Shown here piece by piece: positions 1 to 11,506 of a stretch of DNA of 11,506 nucleotides. The stretch is from assembly GCA_037917625.1 (NCBI GenBank), contig JAVCBY010000105.1, forward strand, positions 1-11,506, written 5' to 3'. The notes under the pieces are model-generated. The model was not told the DNA's origin. It saw nothing but the letters and a program-made list of their open reading frames with translations, and ran no database searches. A program made the translations under genes and the position numbers. Each line of letters starts with the position of its first letter. Position 1 is the first letter of the stretch. Source of the DNA: Thermoproteota archaeon. GTDB taxonomy: Archaea; Korarchaeota; Korarchaeia; Korarchaeales; Korarchaeaceae.

Positions 1-2
1 AG

Positions 3-221
3 GAGTATGAGGGATGGATCAAGAGGATAAAGGATAGCTTAAGGGCGATGAGGGTCTTCGAAAGATTGAGCGATAATGACCTCAATGAGTTAGCAAATGT
101 GTTAGATTATGAGGACGTGATAAACCTCGCTAATGGTATAGAGGTAGGTAAGGTGGCGATGAAGTTAATGAAGCACCCCTTACTAGCTACTTTCATTATG
201 AAGTTTATGAGATTGGGCTGA
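3..221 (+). CDS. 3' end of a probable geranylgeranyl reductase-family FAD oxidoreductase (partial; last ~14 codons lie in the inverted duplication)
   Basis: Open frame from the window edge, EYEGWIKRIKDSLRAMRVFERLSDNDLNELANVLDYEDVINLANGIEVGKVAMKLMKHPLLATFIMKFMRLG*, with TGA at 219-221. The LSDxDLNxLA...KHPLL pattern resembles archaeal GGR C-termini by recall; no catalytic motifs are visible. Confidence 0.55.
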   Translation, partial: EYEGWIKRIKDSLRAMRVFERLSDNDLNELANVLDYEDVINLANGIEVGKVAMKLMKHPLLATFIMKFMRLG

Positions 222-248
222 TCAGCGTGAGCTGAGAAATCGGCAAAT
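176..248. repeat. 73-bp exact inverted repeat, left copy (partner 652-724)
   Basis: ccccttactagctac...gagaaatcggcaaat is the exact reverse complement of 652-724. After one mismatch at 249/651 the match continues over tcacat (250-255 / 645-650). Confidence 0.97.
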
Positions 249-300
249 GTCACATGGAATCTGGTGTCCTCCAGGAAGTCCCGATATTCGTTGATGGGAT
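249..300. repeat. 52-bp exact inverted repeat, left copy (partner 2176-2227)
   Basis: gtcacatggaatctggtgtcctccaggaagtcccgatattcgttgatgggat is the exact reverse complement of 2176-2227. Both copies encode HMESGVLQEVPIFVDG. Confidence 0.97.
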
Positions 301-847
301 GATAAGGGAGATATCGAAGTACTACAACGCTTACTGGTCTTGGTTGAGGCCGGAGTTACAGAGGATGATAAGGGAGAGCAAGAGGGGGCTCTTCGATCAC
401 AGAGCTATAGAGGAAGTTAGGAATAGGGAGGAGCTTCTGGAGATAAGTGAGCCCTTCATAATAGTCACGACATCAGGGATGCTTCAGGGAGGTCCTGTAC
501 TGACATACTTGAAGCACTTCGGGACTAAGAGGGGAAATCTGATATATCTGACGGGCTATCAAGTGAAGGGAACTAGGGGGAGGATGCTCTTAGACGGGAT
601 CAGGCAAATCCCGATGCAAGATGGTATTATAGAGGTGAAGTGCGATGTGAAATTTGCCGATTTCTCAGCTCACGCTGATCAGCCCAATCTCATAAACTTC
701 ATAATGAAAGTAGCTAGTAAGGGGCTCAAGGAAGTCATATTAGTTCACGGTGAACCTGATAAATTGACCCAACTGAGGAGGAAGTTGGAAGCGAGAAGAA
801 TAAGGGCTTACATACCTTATGAAGGTGAAGTACTGAGGATAAAGTGA
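254..847 (+). pseudogene. C-terminal half of an MBL-fold beta-CASP ribonuclease (separated fragment)
   Basis: Contains TSGMLQGGP, GYQVKGTRGR, motif B FSAHAD and motif C VHGE. Lacks HxHxDH and the other N-terminal MBL motifs. Begins with a peptide also found inside the 1845-2927 ORF. Confidence 0.9.
652..724. repeat. 73-bp inverted repeat, right copy (native position in beta-CASP coding sequence)
   Basis: Reverse complement of 176-248. Here it encodes FADFSAHADQPNLINFIMKVASKG in frame, so this is the source copy. Confidence 0.97.
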
Positions 848-914
848 TATTATTCTGATATTACATCTGCCTCAGCTCCTTTTTAACTTACCCTCTCGGA
901 GTGACGCGATAAGG

Positions 915-1559
915 ATGCAGAGCGTAGAGGAGCTCCACCAGGATGGGTTCTTATCTAAGTTATTCTCCGCTGTACACAAGAGGAAGAAGATCTCTCTTGG
1001 TATATATGGTCCAGTCAACTCTGGGAAGACTACTCTAGCGAATAGGATATGCATGGACTTCGCCGGTAGGAAGATGGGCTCCGTGAGCAGAGTACCGCAT
1101 GAGACTAGGTCTGTGAACGTGATGGAGAACGTGATCTTGAAGCTCAAGAACGGATCCTCGATAATCATGGATGTTATAGATACTCCTGGGATAGCGACTA
1201 GGATATCTTACAGGAGCTTCATGATATATGGATTCAAGAAGGATGAGGCTATTGAGAGAGCTGCTGAAGCAGCTAGGGGTGTAGTTGAAGCTATAAGAAG
1301 TATGGAGAGGGTTAATTTAGCTTTATTAGTCATAGATTCGAGTAAGGACGCGACCTCGCAGGTAAATTGGGTAATAGCGGGTAACCTTAAGGCCAGGCTA
1401 ATCCCCTACATAGTCGTAGCTAACAAGATAGATCTGCCTTACGCTAGACCTAAGAGCGTCAAGAGGGTATTTCCAGATGATATGGTCATTCCGATATCAG
1501 CTCTGAGGGGGGATAACATCAGCTCCCTTTACGAGGCCATAGTGAGTTTAGCTAGATAG
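915..1559 (+). CDS. oapA: Era-like small GTPase, OapA/ArvA-like
   Basis: G1 GIYGPVNSGKTTLANRI, G2 PHETR, G3 DTPG, G4 NKID, G5 ISAL. The GIYGPxNxGKTTLANRI...PHETR...DTPGIAT pattern matches my recall of archaeal OapA/ArvA, and a Zn-ribbon gene follows. Confidence 0.75.
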   Translation: MQSVEELHQDGFLSKLFSAVHKRKKISLGIYGPVNSGKTTLANRICMDFAGRKMGSVSRVPHETRSVNVMENVILKLKNGSSIIMDVIDTPGIATRISYRSFMIYGFKKDEAIERAAEAARGVVEAIRSMERVNLALLVIDSSKDATSQVNWVIAGNLKARLIPYIVVANKIDLPYARPKSVKRVFPDDMVIPISALRGDNISSLYEAIVSLAR

Positions 1560-1567
1560 TGTGAAAG

Positions 1568-1876
1568 ATGCCTATAAGGACTATCCTCAAGTGCAGATGC
1601 TGTGGCTTCGAGATAGATGCTGAGAGATCAAACCTCCCCATTCCTGATGCTTGCCCATCTTGCGGGGGGAGGGAACTGGAGTTCCAAGTGGAAGTTGAGG
1701 GAGTTACTGGAGAGGAAGTTAGAGTTGAGCCCCTTCTGAATGAGGCTTTCATAAAGCAGGTATCTCAAGGTGAATACGTGATAGATATATCGACTGATGA
1801 TGTAGCTATAGCTGAACTCGAGCCCGGGGTTTACGAGATCATAATTAAATCGAGATCTTCCTCCCGATCACGATGA
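1568..1876 (+). CDS. Zn-ribbon protein, OapC/ArvC (DUF2072)-like
   Basis: CRCCG and CPSCGG knuckles, C-terminal GEYVID and GVYEI beta-hairpin repeats, located 8 nt after the OapA-like GTPase. Confidence 0.65.
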   Translation: MPIRTILKCRCCGFEIDAERSNLPIPDACPSCGGRELEFQVEVEGVTGEEVRVEPLLNEAFIKQVSQGEYVIDISTDDVAIAELEPGVYEIIIKSRSSSRSR

Positions 1877-2180
1877 AGCCAGTGTGCCCTACCATCCATG
1901 GGGCTGGCCTGGTCCTCCTCTCATTGCTCTCATATTCCCTGTCCAGAATCTCGTGAATCTCGATGAGCCCGAATCCAACTTCCCTAGCTTTCAAGACTGT
2001 CTTATTTACTTGTTCGCATGAAGGGAGGAAAGCTAGGAAAGTGCCATTTGGCTTCAGTTTCTCATGCACTTGAGGTAAGACCTCCCATGGATCGGGGATA
2101 TCTAAGAATATAGCATCAACATTCGACTCATCTATCCCATCTTTCGCATCCTTATGCTTTAATACTACATTATCGATCCC
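1845..2180 (-). pseudogene. trmI: C-terminal half of tRNA (adenine-N1) methyltransferase TrmI/GCD14, fused in frame behind the beta-CASP N-half
   Basis: GIDNVVLKHKDAKDGIDESNVDAIFLDIPDPWEVL...LKPNG...FLPSCEQV...EILDREY...RTRP...MVGHTGFIVIGRK carries the TrmI DxxFLDxPxPW, PxxEQV and RP...HTGF motifs. The N-terminal domain and SAM-binding GxGxG motif are absent from the window. Confidence 0.88.
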
Positions 2181-2227
2181 ATCAACGAATATCGGGACTT
2201 CCTGGAGGACACCAGATTCCATGTGAC
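2176..2227. repeat. 52-bp inverted repeat, right copy
   Basis: Exact reverse complement of 249-300. Its left edge is the beta-CASP/TrmI fusion junction. Confidence 0.97.
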
Positions 2228-2951
2228 TTATCAAAGTTAATAGGACTTCCTGAGCTCTACCTAGAGCGAAAGTAGGTATTATAGTGACTCCCCCACTAGC
2301 TATGACGTTCCTTATATCCTCTATGAACTGCCTCTCCACCTTCTTCCTGGAGGGATGTATATCCTCATCCCCGCCATAAGTCCCCTCTATTATCAAATAA
2401 TCTACCTTAGGGAGTTCAGTCTCAGCTCCCCTAAGTGTCCTAGTGCCAGCTGTGTTTATATCTCCAGTGTAAAGGATGCTCGGTCCATCCTCAGCTGTTA
2501 GATGTATCATTATCGATCCTAAAACGTGACCAGCGTTGAATGTCCTGAGCTCCCATCCATCTAAAGTTAAGTAATCGTTGAGCCTAACGGATCTCTCCCT
2601 CCTCCTAATGAGCTGGATGTCCTGAGTGGAGTAAGGTCTCTCAGCGTGTTCTGAGGAGAGGCTGATGAAGTCCTTCAATAAGATCTCCCCCACATCGACT
2701 GTAGGAGGCGTTACGTAAGTATCGCAATTGCATCTCCTCAGTAGGTAGGGGCTAGCTCCGTAATGATCTAGGTGAGCGTGAGTTAGGATCAAAGCCTCAG
2801 GATCCGACCTAGGCTCGGATGGGAGGAGCTTGGAGCTAGCCCCTAAATCAACGCCAAAGTCGAGTATGATGGGGCTCTTGTAGATGATCTCTACACCTGA
2901 TCTGCCGATTGACCTAGCTCCTCCCAAGAACCTAAGCTCTATTTCACCCGT
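2176..2951 (-). pseudogene. N-terminal part of a KH-less MBL-fold beta-CASP ribonuclease (aCPSF2-like); reads through into the TrmI fragment, stop at 1845
   Basis: Motifs IELRFLGGARSIGRS, LDFG, THAHLDHYG, AGHVLGS, YTGD, IEGTYG and PTFALGRAQE. The frame is open up to ACG at 2951-2949, with TAA immediately upstream. Confidence 0.9.
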
Positions 2952-4314
2952 TTAGAAGCACCTCCTTCAGGAACTCTCTAGCTTCCCTGAACTCCTTAAT
3001 CGATAGCTCCCTCCCCAATCCTATATAACTCCGAGGTAGGAATATGGCCTCAATCTCCTCACGCTTCAATATCTTGGATAAGAGCTCATCATTCAGCACT
3101 TCATCGATGAACCTTCTACCGCTCCTATGGGACCTCAAGGATATCCTCCTCACTATCTCATGAGCCTCCTGCCTTCCCAATCCCCTCTTAACTAGGGATA
3201 TCATTAGCCTCTCGCTAAGGGCTATATCACCGTACCTCTCAAGGTTCTCCTCTATCCTAGCTCTATCTATCTCTAAGTTCTCGATGACAGCTCGAAGAGT
3301 ATTTATCTGCTCCTCCAAGATGAGGAAGGCTTCAGGTAGGATAATCCTCTCCACCGAGCTGTTAGTGAGATCCCTCTCATGCTCCAGCACTACGTTCTCT
3401 AAAGCAGCTATAGCTAGAGATCTCATCAACCTAGCCAATCCGCATACCTTCTCGCTGTTAATGGGGTTCATCTTATGGGGCATCGTGCTAGAGCCCACTT
3501 GCCCCTCCTCGAAGTGCTCCTTTACCTCGCTTATCTCAGTCCTGTGCAAGTTCCTTATCTCATTAGCTATCGCATCAAGCACTGATGAGAAGAGGGACAT
3601 GGAGAGGATAAGATCAGCTAACCTATCCCTGGGGACTACTTGCGTAGTTATCTCAGGAGAGCTCAATCCTAAAGATCTTAGGACCTCGCTCTCAACTTCA
3701 AGGGGGTCCTCAATCCCTAATTCTATTGAGGCTGCGGCAGTGCCTACTGCTCCCCTAAGCTTACCGACTGATGCTTCATTCAAGGAGTTCATGAATCTTC
3801 TGATGGATCTCCTTATATAGTAAGACCATAGAGCGAACTTCATTGAGAGGGGGATGGGATCAGCTACTACTCCATGAGTTCTACCCAAGCAAACGATATC
3901 TAAGGATTCCTCCCCCTTCTCAATTATCTTCTCAAGGAGGGAGGCAGCTTCCCTCAATATTATGGATCCAGCCCTCTTTATCTGGATCCCCATGACTGTA
4001 TCCAGTACATCGTTCGATGTGAGGCCTAAATGCAAGTATTCCCCGTACTTCCCAGCTCTCTTAGAGATAGCCCTGACTAGAGCCATCGTTTCATGCTTCA
4101 CCAACGATTCCTCATTCCTCACATCTTCAAGTGTGACTTCCTCAGCCGCTCTCTCAATAGCTTCAGCTGCTTCTTTAGGGATAAATCCTCTCTCAGCTAA
4201 AGCTCTAGCGTAGAGGGCTTCAACAGATGCCATCAGCTTTATCCTATTCTCCTGCCTGAATATAGCTCGCATACGCTCAGATCCATACCTACTATCTATC
4301 GGATGGACCCACAT
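2944..4314 (-). CDS. purB: Adenylosuccinate lyase
   Basis: HPIDSRYGS start, KHET, HLGLTSNDVLDT, GRTHG, GAVGT, signature GSSTMPHKMNP and HERDLTNSSVER. Confidence 0.96.
   Translation of the reverse strand: MWVHPIDSRYGSERMRAIFRQENRIKLMASVEALYARALAERGFIPKEAAEAIERAAEEVTLEDVRNEESLVKHETMALVRAISKRAGKYGEYLHLGLTSNDVLDTVMGIQIKRAGSIILREAASLLEKIIEKGEESLDIVCLGRTHGVVADPIPLSMKFALWSYYIRRSIRRFMNSLNEASVGKLRGAVGTAAASIELGIEDPLEVESEVLRSLGLSSPEITTQVVPRDRLADLILSMSLFSSVLDAIANEIRNLHRTEISEVKEHFEEGQVGSSTMPHKMNPINSEKVCGLARLMRSLAIAALENVVLEHERDLTNSSVERIILPEAFLILEEQINTLRAVIENLEIDRARIEENLERYGDIALSERLMISLVKRGLGRQEAHEIVRRISLRSHRSGRRFIDEVLNDELLSKILKREEIEAIFLPRSYIGLGRELSIKEFREAREFLKEVLLNG
2959..2965 (-). promoter_or_regulatory. 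Shine-Dalgarno site GGAGGTG for the beta-CASP gene, inside the purB 3' end
   Basis: Minus strand reads GGAGGTG-cttctaa-ACG GGT GAA ATA GAG CTT AGG TTC TTG, a 7-nt spacer. Confidence 0.6.
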
Positions 4315-6382
4315 AAACCAACGACCTCGCCTGATCCACTAACTCCTTAGAGAGCTGCTTCCCTATACCCACTATCCTCTCCAGTTGCTCTGGCTCAGCT
4401 TCAGCTATATCCCTAACGGTCCTGTAGCCAGCTTCGTAGAGGAGCTTAGCTCTCACCCTACCCACCCCCTTCAAGGTCACCAGAGATAGTAGTTCCTCAG
4501 GAACTCCATATCTTATCCTCATTGATAATATTCTGAGCCATTCTGAGACTTTTTTCTCACCAAATAATTTCGATATTTCTGAGAAAGAGTAGCAGAGCCA
4601 CTCTCCATTCTCAGCTAAGTTCCTCAGATCGCCCGGCTCGATCCCCAGTTTCTCCTCTATCTCACCATCGCTCTGGCCTGAGATCCACATCTTAAGGGAT
4701 AGAGCCCCTCTAATCACTTGAAGGAGCTCTCTATGTGATGAGATAGGGGACTCCTCTATCGGGATCAGTGGATCAAGCTCCTCTAAAGCTTCCCTGAGTA
4801 CCTCAGTCCTACCCTTGCCGTAGACCTTCGGCATGTCCGGGAGCATGCAGAGGAGATGGAGGACCGGGAGCTCAACGTCCTCCACCCCATACCTCTTACT
4901 CAACTCATCCAAAGCTTCTATCATGATCTGAGCTGATGATGTATCTATATAGAGCTCTGAGACCCTCCTCCCTAAGGATGTAGCTCTATATGAATTTCTA
5001 ACCTCCTGGAGGAATCCAGCTTCCTTAAGAGACTCCAGGAGGAATGGTATAGTCCTCATCAAGAACCTATCTCCTCCTTGAATGTAAAGTAGGGTCTTCT
5101 CGAATATCTCGAGGATCTCTCCTGAGGATATGAGCTCCATGCTAGCTATAAGAGCTAACAAGTGATTCTTGAGCGAGGACGTATCGTGCAAGTTAGATGA
5201 TATGGGCTCGGGCTTAGAGCTTATGTACTTAAACGCCCTTTCAGCCTCACTCTGCTTAGCTATTATGTAGGCCTCCCCATGAGTATCGTAGCCGGGCCTC
5301 CCAGCCCTACCGGCCATCTGCCAGAATTCCATTATGGAGATGGGAGTCATCCTACCCAACTTAGAGTCGTACCTCATGTAAGAGCTCACTATGACTGTCC
5401 TAGCTGGTAAGTTCACTCCAGCTGCTAGAGTAGGGGTGGCTGTCAATATCTTAACTGATCCCCTCCTGAAGGCCCTCTCCACAGCCCTCCTAAGCTCGAA
5501 GGGGAGGCCAGCATGGTGGAATGCAACCCCCCTCCTCATTACGTTAGAGAGCTTCTCTAGGAGCTTAGAGGGGCCGTAAGAGGGTAAGTTAACCTCCTCT
5601 AGAGGATCCTCACAAGTCATATTGAAGTAAGAAGCTAGTTTCTCAGCCCAAGATACTGCATCACTCCTCTTATTGTAGAACACTATGGCTTGGCCCCCAT
5701 CAGTTAAGCACCTCCTCAGGAGGGGGATTATCCCCTCTCCCTCCAATTTCTTAACGCCATCAGGGTATATCAACTCCCCTCCAGCGTAAATACCCACTTT
5801 GAGGGGGACGGGTCTCCAATCAACTCTTATGGGGACTGCTCTCAACCAATTAGCTATCTCCTCTAAGTTAGTTATAGTGGCGCTTAAAGCTATCCTCCTT
5901 GAGTCATTCTCATGCATGAACTTCGATACCGCCATCTCAAGAGTGGGCCCCCTGTTAGGATCGCCCACATAATGAACTTCATCTAGGACCAATAAACTCA
6001 CTTCATTCAGCCAGGGGCTCCTGTGCCTCTGAAGGGAGTCAAATTTCTCATAAGTCATCACTATGAGGTCATGCTTCCCCAATGGCTCATCAGAGGAATC
6101 GTAATCGCCGATAGATACTCTAACGCTCCACCTATCGAAGAACTTGGAGAACTCCTCATATTTCTCATAAGCTATTGATCTCAAAGGGACTAAGTAGACT
6201 ATCTTTCCTCCCTTCTCTAGCTCCTCATTCATCACTATCTCAGCTGCTAAAGTCTTACCTGATGCTGTAGGAGCTGCTAATACGAAGTTCCCCTCGCTAA
6301 CCAATCCCCTCTCCAAAATCTCCCTCTGAGTTGGGTAAAGCTCCTTAACTCCAGCTCTCTCTAAGAGCTCATCTATCTTCAT
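4292..6382 (-). CDS. hel308: Ski2-like ATP-dependent DNA helicase Hel308/Hjm
   Basis: APTASGKT, TYEKFDS, DEVH, LSAT, FHHAGL, TPTLAAGVNLPA, QMAGRAGRP, RIRYGV and C-terminal HhH motifs (GVGRVRA, GIGKQL). Overlaps the purB start by 23 nt. Confidence 0.93.
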   Translation of the reverse strand: MKIDELLERAGVKELYPTQREILERGLVSEGNFVLAAPTASGKTLAAEIVMNEELEKGGKIVYLVPLRSIAYEKYEEFSKFFDRWSVRVSIGDYDSSDEPLGKHDLIVMTYEKFDSLQRHRSPWLNEVSLLVLDEVHYVGDPNRGPTLEMAVSKFMHENDSRRIALSATITNLEEIANWLRAVPIRVDWRPVPLKVGIYAGGELIYPDGVKKLEGEGIIPLLRRCLTDGGQAIVFYNKRSDAVSWAEKLASYFNMTCEDPLEEVNLPSYGPSKLLEKLSNVMRRGVAFHHAGLPFELRRAVERAFRRGSVKILTATPTLAAGVNLPARTVIVSSYMRYDSKLGRMTPISIMEFWQMAGRAGRPGYDTHGEAYIIAKQSEAERAFKYISSKPEPISSNLHDTSSLKNHLLALIASMELISSGEILEIFEKTLLYIQGGDRFLMRTIPFLLESLKEAGFLQEVRNSYRATSLGRRVSELYIDTSSAQIMIEALDELSKRYGVEDVELPVLHLLCMLPDMPKVYGKGRTEVLREALEELDPLIPIEESPISSHRELLQVIRGALSLKMWISGQSDGEIEEKLGIEPGDLRNLAENGEWLCYSFSEISKLFGEKKVSEWLRILSMRIRYGVPEELLSLVTLKGVGRVRAKLLYEAGYRTVRDIAEAEPEQLERIVGIGKQLSKELVDQARSLVYVGPSDR

Positions 6383-6391
6383 CCAGATCCC

Positions 6392-8500
6392 TTATATGAG
6401 CTTTATCTTCCCTCCGGGTGGGAATATTATGAAACCGTCCTCATTTAGCTTCCTTAGTATGTCCTCCACTACGTACTCCTTCCCCCTCAGATTGAGCCTC
6501 TCGGCAGCCATCCTGACTACCACGTCCCTATCCACTAGACCGTCCTCGCTCTCCTCAGCCAATTGCTTTATGAGCTGGAAGACCACTTCCCTCCTCTTCA
6601 CCTCAGGGAATGAGATGCCAGTCATCCATCCAGTTATATCGAAGTGGCCCGATATTATATCGTAAGCAGCCCCCTTCAGAGTTATCTCCATGAGGTTTAT
6701 GGCCATCTCAGCATCCTCAGCTGTAACCTCCCTCCTCAAGTGCATCCTAGCCCTGGCCTCACTCAACCTTATCAGAGCTTCTAACTGCCTAGGAGTTATG
6801 GATATGAGGTCTTGAACGATCCCCTCCTCCTCTTTGATCCCCCTCCCCCTCACCTCTACGTAGTAACTCTTTATTCTCTCAGCCGCTTCATCAGTTAATA
6901 TGGGATCTATGTTCTGCTTAGCGTAAGCTATATACTTCTTCAGGAGATTCGGATCTATTGGGGGCTTCGCTTCAGGGTTCCTCCCCATTCTAGTTATCAG
7001 TATGTGCTCAGCTACCATGCTATCAGACTCTACCCTAGGCCTATCCTTCATTATGAAGACTAGATCGAACCTCGATACTACAGTCGGGGGGAGGTTTATG
7101 TTCTCAGCTACCGTCACATAATCATCGTACTTCCCCTTCTTAGGGTTCGCAGCAGCTATTATCGTTGTCCTAGCATTTAAAGTAGCTACTATGCCAGCTT
7201 TAGCTATAGAAATAGTTTGTTGCTCCATGGCTTCATGTATAGACCTCCTATCATCCTCACTCATCTTATCGAATTCATCTATGCAAGCAACTCCCATATC
7301 AGCTAAAACTAAAGCTCCAGCTTCCAGAGTCCACCCGCCCGTAGCTGAATCCCTCACAACAGCTGCAGTCAGTCCAGCAGCAGTAGATCCCTTCCCAGTA
7401 GTGTAAAGTCCCCTTGGGGCTAGTTGAGCAGTATATTTCAGGAGCTGGCTCTTAGCGACACCCGGATCTCCTACTAGAAGCACATTTATCTCTCCCCTCA
7501 CTTTAGAGCCATCAGCTAATATCTTAGTGCTTCCCCCGAATAGAGCGTAAGCTATAGCTCTCTTCACATCAGTCCAACCGAAGATAGAGGGAGCTATGGA
7601 CTTAACTATGAGCTCCTCCAGATCTTCCCTCTCCGATAGCTTCAATATCTCCTCTTCATCCTCTGGAGTTATCTCAAGCTTCTCATAAACTCTATTCGGG
7701 ACTTCTACATTTATTATCTCCAAGTACCTCTTATATATGAGCCCCTCCCTTCCCTCATCCCTTCTGGAGGGCTTTATCCTTATTATCCCAGTCACCCTGA
7801 CCCTATCTCCCGGTTTAACGTCATCAACTATATCGTCAGTGAGTATGCCATCGACGTGCTCCGGCATCATGCCCGGCGGCAGGTCCTCAGGTCTCTCCTG
7901 AATCCTCACGCTACGCCACCTGATGAACTTACTCATCTCATGATCTAGCTTCATAGGGGAGCCGCACTCTGGGCATCTCTCGATGACCCTGAGCTTCTCC
8001 CCAATTATGTCTATCTCCTCAATTCTCCCACAGTTAGTGCAGATGAAAGATGCTCTGACTAACTTATCATATACGTCAGACACTCTAGTTATTATCCCCT
8101 CTATCTCTATCAATCTACCTATGGAGAACTTCGTTATATCCCTGAATGAAGCTTTAGTTGGGACGTTGTAGAACCTTAAGTGGAAATCTCCCTCGCTATA
8201 TATCTTGGACTCCTCCGTCATGGGAATTAGCTCCATTACAAGCTCCTTTAGGGCTGAGGAGCCTGCTGAGATATGTAAGGATGGGTTTATCACGATATCC
8301 TCAGCTATCCCCCTGAAATCAGGGCCAAAATTATATAGATGGTACCAATTAACACGCAAAGATCTTTTTTGCTCCTCTATTAATTGTGCTAATGCTTTCT
8401 GATAGAGGGGCTCATTGTTCTCATCCCTGTAGTACTTTAAGAAGCTCTTGTACTTCTCCACTAGCTCCTCGAAACTCATCAAGGGGGCTCTCTCCACCAT
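6392..8500 (-). CDS. mcm: Replicative MCM helicase
   Basis: Zn finger CTNCG...CPECG, QERPEDLPPG, Walker A GDPGVAKS, Walker B IDEFDKM, HEAMEQQ, arginine finger SRFD and ITPRQLEALIRL. 702 aa. Confidence 0.97.
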   Translation of the reverse strand: MVERAPLMSFEELVEKYKSFLKYYRDENNEPLYQKALAQLIEEQKRSLRVNWYHLYNFGPDFRGIAEDIVINPSLHISAGSSALKELVMELIPMTEESKIYSEGDFHLRFYNVPTKASFRDITKFSIGRLIEIEGIITRVSDVYDKLVRASFICTNCGRIEEIDIIGEKLRVIERCPECGSPMKLDHEMSKFIRWRSVRIQERPEDLPPGMMPEHVDGILTDDIVDDVKPGDRVRVTGIIRIKPSRRDEGREGLIYKRYLEIINVEVPNRVYEKLEITPEDEEEILKLSEREDLEELIVKSIAPSIFGWTDVKRAIAYALFGGSTKILADGSKVRGEINVLLVGDPGVAKSQLLKYTAQLAPRGLYTTGKGSTAAGLTAAVVRDSATGGWTLEAGALVLADMGVACIDEFDKMSEDDRRSIHEAMEQQTISIAKAGIVATLNARTTIIAAANPKKGKYDDYVTVAENINLPPTVVSRFDLVFIMKDRPRVESDSMVAEHILITRMGRNPEAKPPIDPNLLKKYIAYAKQNIDPILTDEAAERIKSYYVEVRGRGIKEEEGIVQDLISITPRQLEALIRLSEARARMHLRREVTAEDAEMAINLMEITLKGAAYDIISGHFDITGWMTGISFPEVKRREVVFQLIKQLAEESEDGLVDRDVVVRMAAERLNLRGKEYVVEDILRKLNEDGFIIFPPGGKIKLI

Positions 8501-9000
8501 TATCGGTCAACCCTTACCCCTACGAAGGAGCGCATCCACTCCTCTATGATGGACTTCAAGGCATTATAAAGTATTATCTCCTCAACTAATAAGTTCTTAG
8601 GTGGCTTCTTGGATGTCAAGAGTATGGATGCCTTGAGATAGTCCATCAGCTTCCCCAATCTCCTGTTTACGAGCTCTATAGCATCCCTCCTCATCAGAGA
8701 GTCCTCAGGGCTCTCCCTTATCACTTCCCTTATGATGTGGAAGGTCCCCTGAGGGAGCTCGGTGAGGAGTATCGAGACCTTCTCCTTGTAAAGCTTCTCG
8801 CTTATAACCTCGGGGCTCTCCTTGAGTACCTCGCATAGCCCCTCCTCCTCGAGTATCTCAGCCAGCCACCTCGGTACCTCAGTTTCAACGTCCTTGAAGA
8901 TCCTAATACCGAGCCTCTCGAAATTCAAGTCCCTCTTAGCTACTATCCTAACGCTCTGAATCTCCTCAAGGCATTCCGCCATTCTACTCGAGATAAACAC
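8500..9000 (-). CDS. gins23: GINS complex subunit, Gins23 (BA-type); start either GTG 9000 or ATG 8982
   Basis: N-terminal B-domain-like EVPRWLAEILEEEG followed by a helical A-domain (RRLGKL, NLLVEE). Directly upstream of mcm with a TAATG stop/start overlap, the known gins23-mcm arrangement. Confidence 0.8.
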   Translation of the reverse strand: MFISSRMAECLEEIQSVRIVAKRDLNFERLGIRIFKDVETEVPRWLAEILEEEGLCEVLKESPEVISEKLYKEKVSILLTELPQGTFHIIREVIRESPEDSLMRRDAIELVNRRLGKLMDYLKASILLTSKKPPKNLLVEEIILYNALKSIIEEWMRSFVGVRVDR

Positions 9001-9020
9001 AAGCTATCCCCTCTACCAAC

Positions 9021-9032
9021 ATTAAATATTTT
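9021..9032. promoter_or_regulatory. Candidate shared TATA element for divergent gins23 and nadK
   Basis: attaaatatttt is the only AT tract in the 52-bp intergenic region and is centred between the two start codons. Confidence 0.5.
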
Positions 9033-9052
9033 GGCCCGGGGATCAACTCGGG

Positions 9053-9934
9053 ATGTATGAAAAAGGATTTAGGGTGAGTAAGGTAATATTACTCTATAAC
9101 AAGGACAAGGAGAGGTCCCATAAGATATCTGAGAGGCTCAGATCATCCCTAATCTCGAATAAAATAGAGGTAGTTGATGATCATAGGGAGGCAGAGGTAG
9201 CTATAGTCATAGGCGGGGATGGAACGATCCTCAGGGCCTTCCATCAAGTGGGGAGTCTCCCTATCTTAGGGGTGAAGGATGGGACCTTCGGGACATTATT
9301 GGAGTTCGATGCTACGCAAATAGATAGGATACCAGAGATCCTCAAGGAAGGAGAATTCTGGCTGGAGCATGCTCTAACATTAGAGGTGATAGATTCGAAA
9401 TTGAGCCTAGTAGCCCTGAATGAATTTCTTGTGAGGAGCGGTAAGCTTGGAAAATCTTCCAGGCTCGGCTTAGCGATAGATGATGTCCCCCTGGGCGAGT
9501 GCATATGTGATGGCCTCATAATAGCTACCCCAACTGGATCTTACGCTTACTCCCTAGCCGCTGGAGGCCCTATTCTGGATCCGCGTTGCGATAGCACTGT
9601 AATATCTTACGTAGCTCCCTGGCCACCTAGCCTTATGCCAGCTGTTAAATCCATAATAGTTCCCTCTTCCTCAATCATAGAAGTTTGGTCAGCCTCCCCT
9701 TACCTCTACGTGGTAGCTGATGGCCTCTCCCCAGTCAGGTTGAGGCCCCCGCTCAGGATCTCCCGCTCAAGGAGGGAAGCGATATTCATAAGGAAGTCCC
9801 CGGATCCGACGGAATTCTACAAGAGGATGGCTAAGAGGATGATCCCAAGGACTCTGACTGGTATCCTGCAGTATGAGAGGCTCAGACCAGCTCCCACAAA
9901 ATCTTTAAATCTTGATAGACTGCATCAAGGATGA
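9053..9934 (+). CDS. nadK: NAD(+) kinase
   Basis: GGDGTILR, ALNE, DGLIIATPTGSYAYSLAAGGP and VADG motifs. Confidence 0.93.
   Translation: MYEKGFRVSKVILLYNKDKERSHKISERLRSSLISNKIEVVDDHREAEVAIVIGGDGTILRAFHQVGSLPILGVKDGTFGTLLEFDATQIDRIPEILKEGEFWLEHALTLEVIDSKLSLVALNEFLVRSGKLGKSSRLGLAIDDVPLGECICDGLIIATPTGSYAYSLAAGGPILDPRCDSTVISYVAPWPPSLMPAVKSIIVPSSSIIEVWSASPYLYVVADGLSPVRLRPPLRISRSRREAIFIRKSPDPTEFYKRMAKRMIPRTLTGILQYERLRPAPTKSLNLDRLHQG
9904..9910 (+). promoter_or_regulatory. Candidate TATA box for tRNA-Leu, inside the nadK 3' end
   Basis: TTTAAAT preceded by an A-rich BRE-like cacaaaa, about 30 nt upstream of the mature tRNA 5' end. Confidence 0.55.
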
Positions 9935-9935
9935 G

Positions 9936-10022
9936 GCGGGGGTGGCCGAGCCAGGTCCAAGGCGACGGACTCAAGATCCGTTGGGCGTCAGGCCCTCGTG
10001 GGTTCGAATCCCACCCCCCGCA
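9936..10022 (+). tRNA. tRNA-Leu(CAA), intronless, CCA not encoded
   Basis: Acceptor stem GCGGGGG/CCCCCGC with discriminator A. Anticodon arm ACGGA-CT-CAA-GA-TCCGT (CAA at 9972-9974). Long variable arm GGGC-GTCAG-GCCC. T arm GTGGG-TTCGAAT-CCCAC. Confidence 0.97.
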
Positions 10023-10074
10023 CTAATTTACCGATAAGTTATAAAATACTTCTGCATAATTTATTTCGAGTGGT

Positions 10075-10341
10075 ATGCTTAAGCCCAATAGGGGTAAGAC
10101 TGAGACCATTAATGATGCTATTTATATTTACTCGCCTTCTTTAGGGATGATTGAGAATTGGAAGCGTAGGGCTGAGAAAACTTGTGCTTCCATCTCGAAG
10201 TTCGTGGTCGAGTGGGTTGAGGATTCTATTAGGCGTGAGGAGGGCGAGGAGGGCCATCTTAAAGCTCTAGAAAATCGTTATGTTGAGTCGAAGAGGTTAA
10301 GGCTTGCTGAGGTTCACTTTAATGGAAATGCGAAAGGGTGA
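10075..10341 (+). CDS. Small ribbon-helix-helix-like protein, possibly a degraded remnant
   Basis: AIYIYSPS-LGMIENWKRRAEK-TCASISKFVVEWVEDSI fits a strand-helix-helix pattern. A TATA-like ttataaaa lies at 10039-10046. Confidence 0.5.
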   Translation: MLKPNRGKTETINDAIYIYSPSLGMIENWKRRAEKTCASISKFVVEWVEDSIRREEGEEGHLKALENRYVESKRLRLAEVHFNGNAKG

Positions 10342-10345
10342 TGGT

Positions 10346-11506
10346 ATGGGTATTGAAGAAAATTTCATAAAACCAGGGTGCATTTTGGAAGGACCTTTCT
10401 GGCCTGAACGTATTAGAGTTATTTCTTCCAGACGAATTGGCAATAGTATCAGGATAGAAGGTGTAGGTTTAAAGTCCGAGCATTTCTACTCTAGGATTTT
10501 CACTGAGAGCGACCTTGTCAAAATAAAAAAAGTAGAGTTGAGAGAAAGGGATTTTTCTGGTGATGCGGAGGCATTCCTTCTTTTTATTGAAGGGAAAAGG
10601 ATCCGTTTGGCTCATCAATTTGACCCGCTATACGCTGTTAATGTTTCACAAGTAGATCCGTTACCTCATCAAATCGAGGCCGTATATCATTATATCTTAA
10701 AACATCCGAGAGTTAGATTCCTCCTCGCCGATGACCCTGGAGCTGGAAAAACAATTATGGCTGGGTTAGTGCTTAAGGAGCTTAAGCAAAGGGGGCTTGT
10801 TAATCGCGTTCTCATCGTCATACCATGGCACTTAAGAGATCAGTGGCTCAGGGAAATGAAAGAAAAGTTTGGTGAAACATTCAAAGTTATCGATAGGTCT
10901 GTAATGGATGCATCATGGGGACGAAATGTATGGTTAGAAGAAAGCCAAGTGATCACCTCCATGGACTTTGCTAAGCAAGAAGATGTTATGCAGAGCTTAG
11001 CCGAAGCGAGGTGGGACTTAGTGATAGTGGATGAAGCACACAAAATGGCTGCTTATGAATATGGTGGGAAGAGAAAGGAAACGCAAAGATATAAACTTGG
11101 AGAACTCTTGTCAAGAAATTGTAGTTTTATGCTCCTCCTTACAGCAACTCCGCATAGAGGAGATCCCACTAATTTTAGGCTACTTCTGGATTTACTTGAA
11201 CCTGGATTCCTTGCAACGGATGAAATGCTTATAGAATCGGTGAGAAATAAAGATAACCCTCTCTTCCTCAGGCGACTAAAAGAAGATTTAAAGAATTTCG
11301 ATGGAACGCCTTTATTCCCTCCGAGAAAAGTAATAACTATTAAGTATCGTTTAAGTGATGATGAAAAGCGTCTTTATAATGCTGTAACGGAGTACGTGGA
11401 AAAATACTACAATAAGGCCATGGAGCAGCCAGAGAAAAAGAGAAACGCTGCTTTTGCCTTACTAATCCTTCAAAGGCGTTTGGCATCGAGCGTTAAGCGT
11501 GTTTGC
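10346..11506 (+). CDS. SNF2/SWI2-family helicase, 3'-truncated by the window (absent from the ORF track)
   Basis: Open frame of 387 codons from ATG 10346, with GGTGA just upstream: MGIEENFIKPGCILEGPFWPE...FDPLYAVNVSQVDPLPHQIEAVY...RFLLADDPGAGKTIMAG...VIVDEAHKM...LLLTATPHRGD...LQRRLASS. Confidence 0.92.
   Translation, partial: MGIEENFIKPGCILEGPFWPERIRVISSRRIGNSIRIEGVGLKSEHFYSRIFTESDLVKIKKVELRERDFSGDAEAFLLFIEGKRIRLAHQFDPLYAVNVSQVDPLPHQIEAVYHYILKHPRVRFLLADDPGAGKTIMAGLVLKELKQRGLVNRVLIVIPWHLRDQWLREMKEKFGETFKVIDRSVMDASWGRNVWLEESQVITSMDFAKQEDVMQSLAEARWDLVIVDEAHKMAAYEYGGKRKETQRYKLGELLSRNCSFMLLLTATPHRGDPTNFRLLLDLLEPGFLATDEMLIESVRNKDNPLFLRRLKEDLKNFDGTPLFPPRKVITIKYRLSDDEKRLYNAVTEYVEKYYNKAMEQPEKKRNAAFALLILQRRLASSVKRVC

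Follow-up and report, generated by a model that had tools for sequence, protein, structure and literature searches.

A split beta-CASP ribonuclease gene with 52-bp inverted repeats in an archaeal contig is very probably a chimera of the amplification type

Is the split beta-CASP ribonuclease gene at the left end of archaeal contig JAVCBY010000105.1 a genetic switch, a fixed rearrangement, or a product of how the DNA was prepared and assembled? The window analyzed here is that entire contig (C50; 11,506 nucleotides [nt]), which belongs to a draft assembly (G000) of 116 contigs and 1.22 Mb that is 84% complete. In its first 2.2 kb, the two parts of the gene lie on opposite strands, and each carries a copy of the same 52-nt sequence. 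A first-pass annotation interpreted this arrangement as an intragenic ON/OFF inverton while allowing that a technical chimera was at least as likely. Other contigs of the assembly, related genomes, public sequencing runs, and an assembly-wide excess of similar structures bear out the second option: this 2.2-kb stretch is very probably an amplification-type technical chimera and holds no real feature.

Recalculation confirmed that positions 249 to 300 are the exact reverse complement of positions 2176 to 2227 over 52 nt, with 0 nt of extension on either side. Such a pair is expected by chance in 11.5 kb with a frequency of 3.6e-24, and the longest exact inverted repeat found in 30 shuffles of the sequence was 18 nt. 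Joining the reverse complement of 2176 to 2951 to positions 301 to 847 (776 + 547 nt) yields a 1323-nt frame of 440 codons plus a stop, without internal stops. Pfam searches placed Lactamase_B in the N-terminal part and Beta-Casp (78.7 bits) and RMMBL (56.2 bits) in the C-terminal part, in agreement with the motifs recognized previously; the domain set of a beta-CASP ribonuclease (metallo-beta-lactamase, Beta-Casp, and RMMBL) is complete in the joined polypeptide. The 440-amino-acid (aa) in-frame join of the first-pass annotation holds as an open frame and not as a protein: the figure is a stop-to-stop length, position 2951 has no start codon, and the earliest in-frame start is a TTG at 2927. 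The orthologue in G012, a congener finished to a single contig and 96% identical at the aa level across the beta-CASP C half, is also TTG initiated, with an open reading frame (ORF) of 432 aa. The end of purB, at 2944, falls within the frame that is open from 2951.

A second inverted repeat, overlooked in the initial description of the first, touches it. Positions 176 to 255 pair with 645 to 724 over 80 nt with a single mismatch (at 249), and positions 176 to 248 are the exact reverse complement of 652 to 724, within the C-terminal half of the same beta-CASP gene. Three kinds of sequence thus make up a mosaic in the leftmost 300 nt of C50: the 3' part of an unrelated small ORF, here called gene U (positions 1 to 175, or 191 if shared bases are counted), antisense beta-CASP sequence (176 to 248), and sense beta-CASP sequence from 249 onward, beginning at gene nt 725.

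An exact 52-nt inverted repeat around a 1875-nt segment, whose flip restores a reading frame, has the form of a programmed intragenic inverton, in which the repeats would be recombination sites and inversion of 301 to 2175 would switch the beta-CASP gene ON or OFF. Intragenic invertons have been described in bacteria (10.1101/2023.03.11.532203), and as in those systems, inverted repeats within C50 bound a segment whose inversion alters a reading frame.

Comparison with relatives, a check proposed along with the inverton idea, revealed no stable second repeat. All four congeners searched at the DNA level (G012, G004, G006, and G009) are colinear, with the same gene order and one 52-mer. G012 is colinear across all three positions at which the window departs from the normal order (junctions J1 to J3, below). 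Its order is window 10024 to 2170 in reverse, window 251 to 2180, the continuation seen on contig C8 of the draft assembly, the reverse complement of window 191 to 2, and contig C37 in reverse, with the first two blocks overlapping across the lone 52-mer. In coordinates of the relative's locus L011, window 251 to 2180 is colinear with 11786 to 13724 and window 2170 to 10024 with 11840 to 3987. At the protein level, the best match in each of 12 same-genus genomes lies in one stop-free frame of 440 to 472 aa, versus 203 aa for the frame in C50 itself. The N and C halves were contiguous on one strand and in one frame at all nine loci fetched (L002 to L010), the two matches overlapping by shared codons.

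Sequence in normal order was also recovered from the assembly that contains the window. A BLAST search with the first 3 kb of C50 found the same DNA on four further contigs. C8 (1219 nt) and C113 (1369 nt) match the window from positions 1746 and 1711, respectively, to 2180 at 100% identity; past 2180, they continue for 476 nt that complete a methyltransferase gene and then enter the reverse complement of window 191 to 1 with one mismatch (window 1 to 191 in reverse complement corresponds to C8 1029 to 1219 and C113 1179 to 1369). Both contigs traverse the J3 and J1 sites in un-rearranged form. The last 125 nt of C37 (17992 to 18116) equal window 1 to 125. Window 1746 to 2049 occurs on four contigs (C50, C99, C113, and C8). 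A genome of 1.2 to 1.6 Mb whose finished relative has a single copy of this DNA could not accommodate all these configurations together. Additional fold-back pieces of the same locus form the starts of C8, C113, and C99. In C99, positions 1 to 472 (L034) are a perfect palindrome assembled from three unrelated pieces, namely the reverse complement of window 600 to 724, 72 nt of C37 (15576 to 15647), and a degenerate copy of window 996 to 1054; it is a multipiece fold-back chimera retained as a separate contig.

Alignment of these sequences resolved the first 2.2 kb of C50 into three passes over one normal locus, connected by J1, J2, and J3 (Table 1). J1 was called from a three-way comparison of the window, the reverse complement of C8, and the reverse complement of window 685 to 750; its microhomology is shared by gene U and antisense beta-CASP sequence. 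The J3 call is based on identity of the window to C8 up to 2180 and to the reverse complement of window 276 to 300 from 2176. For J2, both normal flanks exist, though within C50 only. Segment A, the gene U part, lies in the normal locus in the opposite orientation, approximately 480 nt past window position 2180, and maps to L011 14389 to 14200; segment B, the antisense beta-CASP piece, maps to L011 12249 to 12180. In G012 coordinates, the joined points are approximately 0.4, 1.9, and 1.9 kb apart, and all segments normally fall within approximately 2.6 kb. Of the three joins, J2 and J3 are inverted, and the microhomologies at J1, J2, and J3 amount to 15/16, 6, and 5 nt. The edges of the 52-mer are J2 (248/249) and J3 (2175/2176), and the repeat is therefore gene nt 725 to 776 covered once in each direction. 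What appeared to be a 52-bp inverted repeat is one stretch of beta-CASP sequence traversed twice by a self-folding path.

Three public runs (X1 to X3) hold at least half of the sampled words of window 1 to 3000, and we examined their Logan contigs, which permit no read counts across junctions. All three differ from the window by single-nucleotide polymorphisms, with none identical, and represent close strains 95 to 99+% alike; among the matches listed for X1, 16 of 43 records were at least 99% identical and 27 were 95 to 99% identical. X1 and X2 have variants and joints in common and might represent a single data set. Where contig cover of the window was low or absent, as at 1499 to 1712 in X3, the runs were not used as evidence. 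The two beta-CASP halves are joined through a single 52-mer, with at least 336 nt on each side, in X1 record 2 (742 nt), X2 record 8 (1059 nt), and X3 record 14 (1416 nt). Position 2180 is connected to the reverse complement of position 191 through an intact methyltransferase gene in X1 record 1 and X2 record 7, and loose ends of X3 at 191 and 2180 continue exactly like C8. Among the matches listed for X1 to X3 (49 further records lay outside the listing), there were only three joints, each restoring the normal order.

These observations leave the inverton with a negligible probability. The second copy of the 52-mer is present in C50 only, the sequence being single in G012, G004, G006, and G009 and in the contigs of X1 to X3, and both repeat edges coincide with chimeric junctions at which microhomology is present. 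The proposal that flipping 301 to 2175 restores the gene is correct for beta-CASP alone: after the flip, the methyltransferase gene would still be truncated and joined to a 52-mer, gene U (1 to 175) would still be truncated, and the stray 73-nt antisense fragment (176 to 248) would still be in place. In either orientation, one 52-mer remains attached to a truncated methyltransferase gene and the other side to a stray antisense fragment, so that the repeat is without colinear context. C8 and C113 represent the normal locus, not the flipped state, and their intact methyltransferase gene is unreachable by any flip; the X1 to X3 contigs, which are assembled sequences and not source reads, contain the colinear form only. 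As the first-pass annotation had observed, no recombinase is in view: Pfam found a recombinase or integrase domain in 0 of the 12 ORFs of the 11.5-kb contig, the rest of the genome not having been searched for one. In contrast to the invertons of 10.1101/2023.03.11.532203, the repeat here is missing from the relatives and runs examined, no invertase is among the C50 ORFs, the repeat edges adjoin unrelated DNA, and a flip leaves neighboring genes broken. An archaeal intragenic inverton would be new, but the C50 structure is not one; there is very probably no inversion in the cell, and the flip reading has no support.

We then asked how common such structures are in the assembly. A self-search for intracontig inverted pairs (28-nt seeds, at least 97% identity) returned 29 near-exact pairs in 26 of the 116 contigs. 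An arm lay no more than 10 nt from a contig end in 20 of the 29 pairs and no more than 300 nt from one in 26 of 29, whereas only 5.7% of the assembly is within 300 nt of contig ends. Several arms were exactly 125 nt, the length of the overlaps between neighboring contigs. The same self-search of 20 evenly spaced 20-kb pieces of G012 (400 kb) returned 0 inverted pairs; all 29 pairs in the draft are less than 7 kb apart and would therefore be detectable in pieces of this size. Such inverted pairs characterize the data set as a whole and are not peculiar to the beta-CASP locus.

Some other contigs of the draft have unusual architectures of their own. Several are hairpin-like: C6 is palindromic over 1 to 670, C80 1 to 1062 is the reverse complement of 2991 to 4052, and C110 1 to 134 is that of 1276 to 1409; C91 and others are of the same kind. 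C37 contains two exact direct duplications (113 and 324 nt) at 16371 to 17426 (L035), near the end that abuts the window. Compared with G012, C37 traverses the same ~600 nt twice, probably as another chimeric path, in direct orientation. Many exact direct repeats of 28 to 31 nt with regular short spacing occur in C40 (~30 to 5205) and C97 (~52 to 1542) and resemble CRISPR arrays.

A real, fixed rearrangement with several breakpoints, arising by in vivo template switching or fold-back repair and inactivating the beta-CASP, methyltransferase, and gene U genes, is the explanation that most needs to be weighed against a chimera. The junctions are in a contig and must have had read support, living cells also produce inverted joins by microhomology-mediated events, and no contig of the assembly carries the intact 776/777 join with long flanks. 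However, un-rearranged sequence at J1 and J3 is present in the same assembly at 100% identity, and one 300-nt stretch occurs there as many as four times; the same type of structure recurs in 26 of 116 contigs, versus none in 400 kb of the finished G012; and every relative examined has the three broken genes whole and in colinear order. Words spanning J3 (26 nt) and J2 (27 nt) had 0 exact matches in a public metagenome contig collection, a weak argument given that only exact matches were sought and that near-identical records may be omitted from the collection. Taken together, the evidence makes a fixed rearrangement very improbable. Slightly less probable still is its more specific form, in which the zig-zag is real DNA, a recent in vivo, microhomology-mediated template-switch duplication-inversion that lies beside the gins-mcm replication cluster of a korarchaeote-like archaeon and splits a conserved RNA-processing nuclease. 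Were it true, the 52-bp inverted repeat could permit reversion by homologous recombination.

A different possibility is that no chimeric molecules existed and that the assembler produced the structure by a path error or by concatenating contigs. In favor of this possibility, exact 125-nt overlaps at contig ends (C37 with C50, the starts of C8 and C99, and the 1 to 125 arms in C29, C35, and C55) indicate graph-derived contigs with unresolved branches. However, the homologies at the junctions are only 5 to 16 nt, far shorter than the 125-nt overlaps, and C50 contains 0 Ns, so that reads spanning the junctions would have been needed to make the joins. A purely computational misjoin is therefore unlikely, and we would give it only a few chances in a hundred.

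The structure can be accounted for by chimeric molecules. In all relatives examined, the normal locus runs purB, beta-CASP, GTPase, and small ORF, then methyltransferase and gene U (both on the opposite strand), and then C37. Followed from right to left, C50 tracks this order as far as beta-CASP nt 776. At J3, the strand switches, and the path reenters partway through the methyltransferase gene and returns to beta-CASP nt 725; at J2, a second strand switch follows, yielding 73 nt within the beta-CASP gene; and at J1, the path jumps forward ~1.9 kb into gene U. We infer that the source DNA was amplified before sequencing and that the joins are template-switch (fold-back) chimeras from whole-genome amplification or library preparation. 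Such molecules would have been abundant in the library, and the assembler would have threaded them into C50, C8, C99, and C113.

Chimeras of this type have precedent in multiple displacement amplification. In PMC1855051, 406 of 475 chimeras (85%) were inverted, and 337 of these joined segments less than 10 kb apart; complementary bases, up to 21 bp, were present at the junction in 93.5% of the inverted chimeras spanning less than 10 kb. The mechanism presented there (Lasken & Stockwell 2007) is that displaced 3' ends prime again on a strand close by within one branched molecule. Like the chimeras described there, the window contains inverted joins between points a few hundred to ~2000 nt apart with 5 to 16 nt of complementary bases, un-rearranged sequence coexists in the data, and the structures are assembly-wide. 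Unlike them, one of the three joins is direct, and the chimeras are fixed in contigs rather than confined to single reads.

Several points weigh against this explanation. DNA amplification is itself deduced. The assembler ran C50 straight through J3, which requires chimeric molecules to have been plentiful among the reads. The same-orientation join at J1 belongs to the rarer class in PMC1855051 (15% of chimeras). By their single-nucleotide polymorphisms, X1 to X3 are close strains and not the proven source of the window. Finally, 0 contigs of the assembly carry the 776/777 beta-CASP join with flanks longer than 52 nt on each side, and the presence of an intact beta-CASP gene in the source sample is deduced from the overlap. 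With these points taken into account, an amplification-type chimera remains by far the most probable explanation.

Table 1 Features of the window, with junctions and segments of the probably chimeric left end listed first
Feature	Position	Strand	Remarks
Left 52-mer copy	249..300	+	beta-CASP codons, sense; left edge is J2
Right 52-mer copy	2176..2227	-	Left edge is J3
beta-CASP gene nt 725-1323 of 1323 (Beta-Casp, RMMBL)	249..847	+	Unbroken across 300/301
beta-CASP gene nt 1-776 (metallo-beta-lactamase domain)	2176..2951	-	Likely start TTG 2927
Segment A: 3' part of small ORF with no assigned family (gene U)	1..191	+	
J1: same-orientation join skipping ~1.9 kb	176..191		16-nt microhomology, 15/16 identical
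Segment B: stray 73-nt exact antisense copy of beta-CASP, 652-724	176..248	-	Left arm of second repeat
J2: fold-back (inverted) join	250..255		6-nt microhomology TCACAT; joined points ~400 nt apart in normal gene
J3: fold-back (inverted) join	2176..2180		5-nt microhomology ATCCC; joined points normally ~1.9 kb apart
Small GTPase gene (MMR_HSR1 / small_GTP)	915..1559	+	Pfam, NCBIfam
102-aa ORF, no Pfam/NCBIfam family	1568..1876	+	Homologous ORF follows GTPase gene of a relative (L002 2818-3132)
GCD14-type methyltransferase (Pfam PF08704), C-terminal part cut by J3	1845..2180	-	Hit at residues 253-338 of fusion ORF
Spurious 360-aa in-frame fusion of beta-CASP N and methyltransferase C parts	1845..2927	-	Created by J3
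False 197-aa half-nuclease from internal ATG	254..847	+	
False 72-aa ORF, last 15 residues antisense beta-CASP	3..221	+	False C terminus
purB	2944-4314	-	Profile search
Hel308-type helicase	4292-6382	-	Profile search
MCM	6392-8500	-	Profile search
Gins23	8500-9000	-	Profile search

The biological significance of the structure is nil, neither a switch nor a split gene being supported. Its minor importance is for data hygiene. Gene callers will pass three false proteins (the 360-aa fusion, the 197-aa half-nuclease, and the ORF at 3 to 221) to databases, and about a fifth of the contigs (26 of 116) have inverted-repeat ends of the same type. Inverted repeats, "split genes," and short palindromic contigs of this genome should not be taken as biology without read-level support.

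The beta-CASP gene itself is ordinary, a KH-less beta-CASP ribonuclease related to aCPSF1, and it is kept next to purB across the genus. Like other KH-less archaeal enzymes of this type, the restored gene combines Lactamase_B, Beta-Casp, and RMMBL, and the G012 orthologue matches positions 180 to 630 of the NCBIfam aCPSF1 profile (TIGR03675). The orthologue scores 326.8 bits, where 580.2 is the cut-off for aCPSF1, and has no counterpart to the N-terminal 180 positions of the profile; it is therefore a shorter paralogue. A 643-aa aCPSF1-like paralogue is present elsewhere in the genome, on C25. KH-less archaeal beta-CASP ribonucleases related to aCPSF1 go by the name "aCPSF2."

Profile searches also verified the gins-mcm-hel308-purB run reported to the right of the split gene, all on the minus strand (Table 1). 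The label oapA/oapC-like, given earlier to the two plus-strand genes that follow beta-CASP, was not confirmed, as Pfam and NCBIfam assigned the first to the small GTPases and the second to no family. Among the papers listed that use both names, oapA and oapC denote bacterial OLE-RNA-associated proteins, and an archaeal meaning is unconfirmed. The methyltransferase that J3 truncates is whole, at 235 aa, on C8 and C113 (L032 218 to 925).

At the opposite end of the window, a tRNA-Leu(CAA) gene occupies 9936 to 10023, and colinearity with G012 ends exactly at the tRNA 3' end, at 10024. The tRNA gene is followed by an 88-aa ORF of no family and by an SNF2-family helicase ORF (10304 to 11506) that runs off the contig. 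In the four congeners searched for this helicase, two had no match and two had only a 31%-identical 987-aa paralogue elsewhere. This region may be a strain-specific island inserted beside the tRNA-Leu(CAA) gene.

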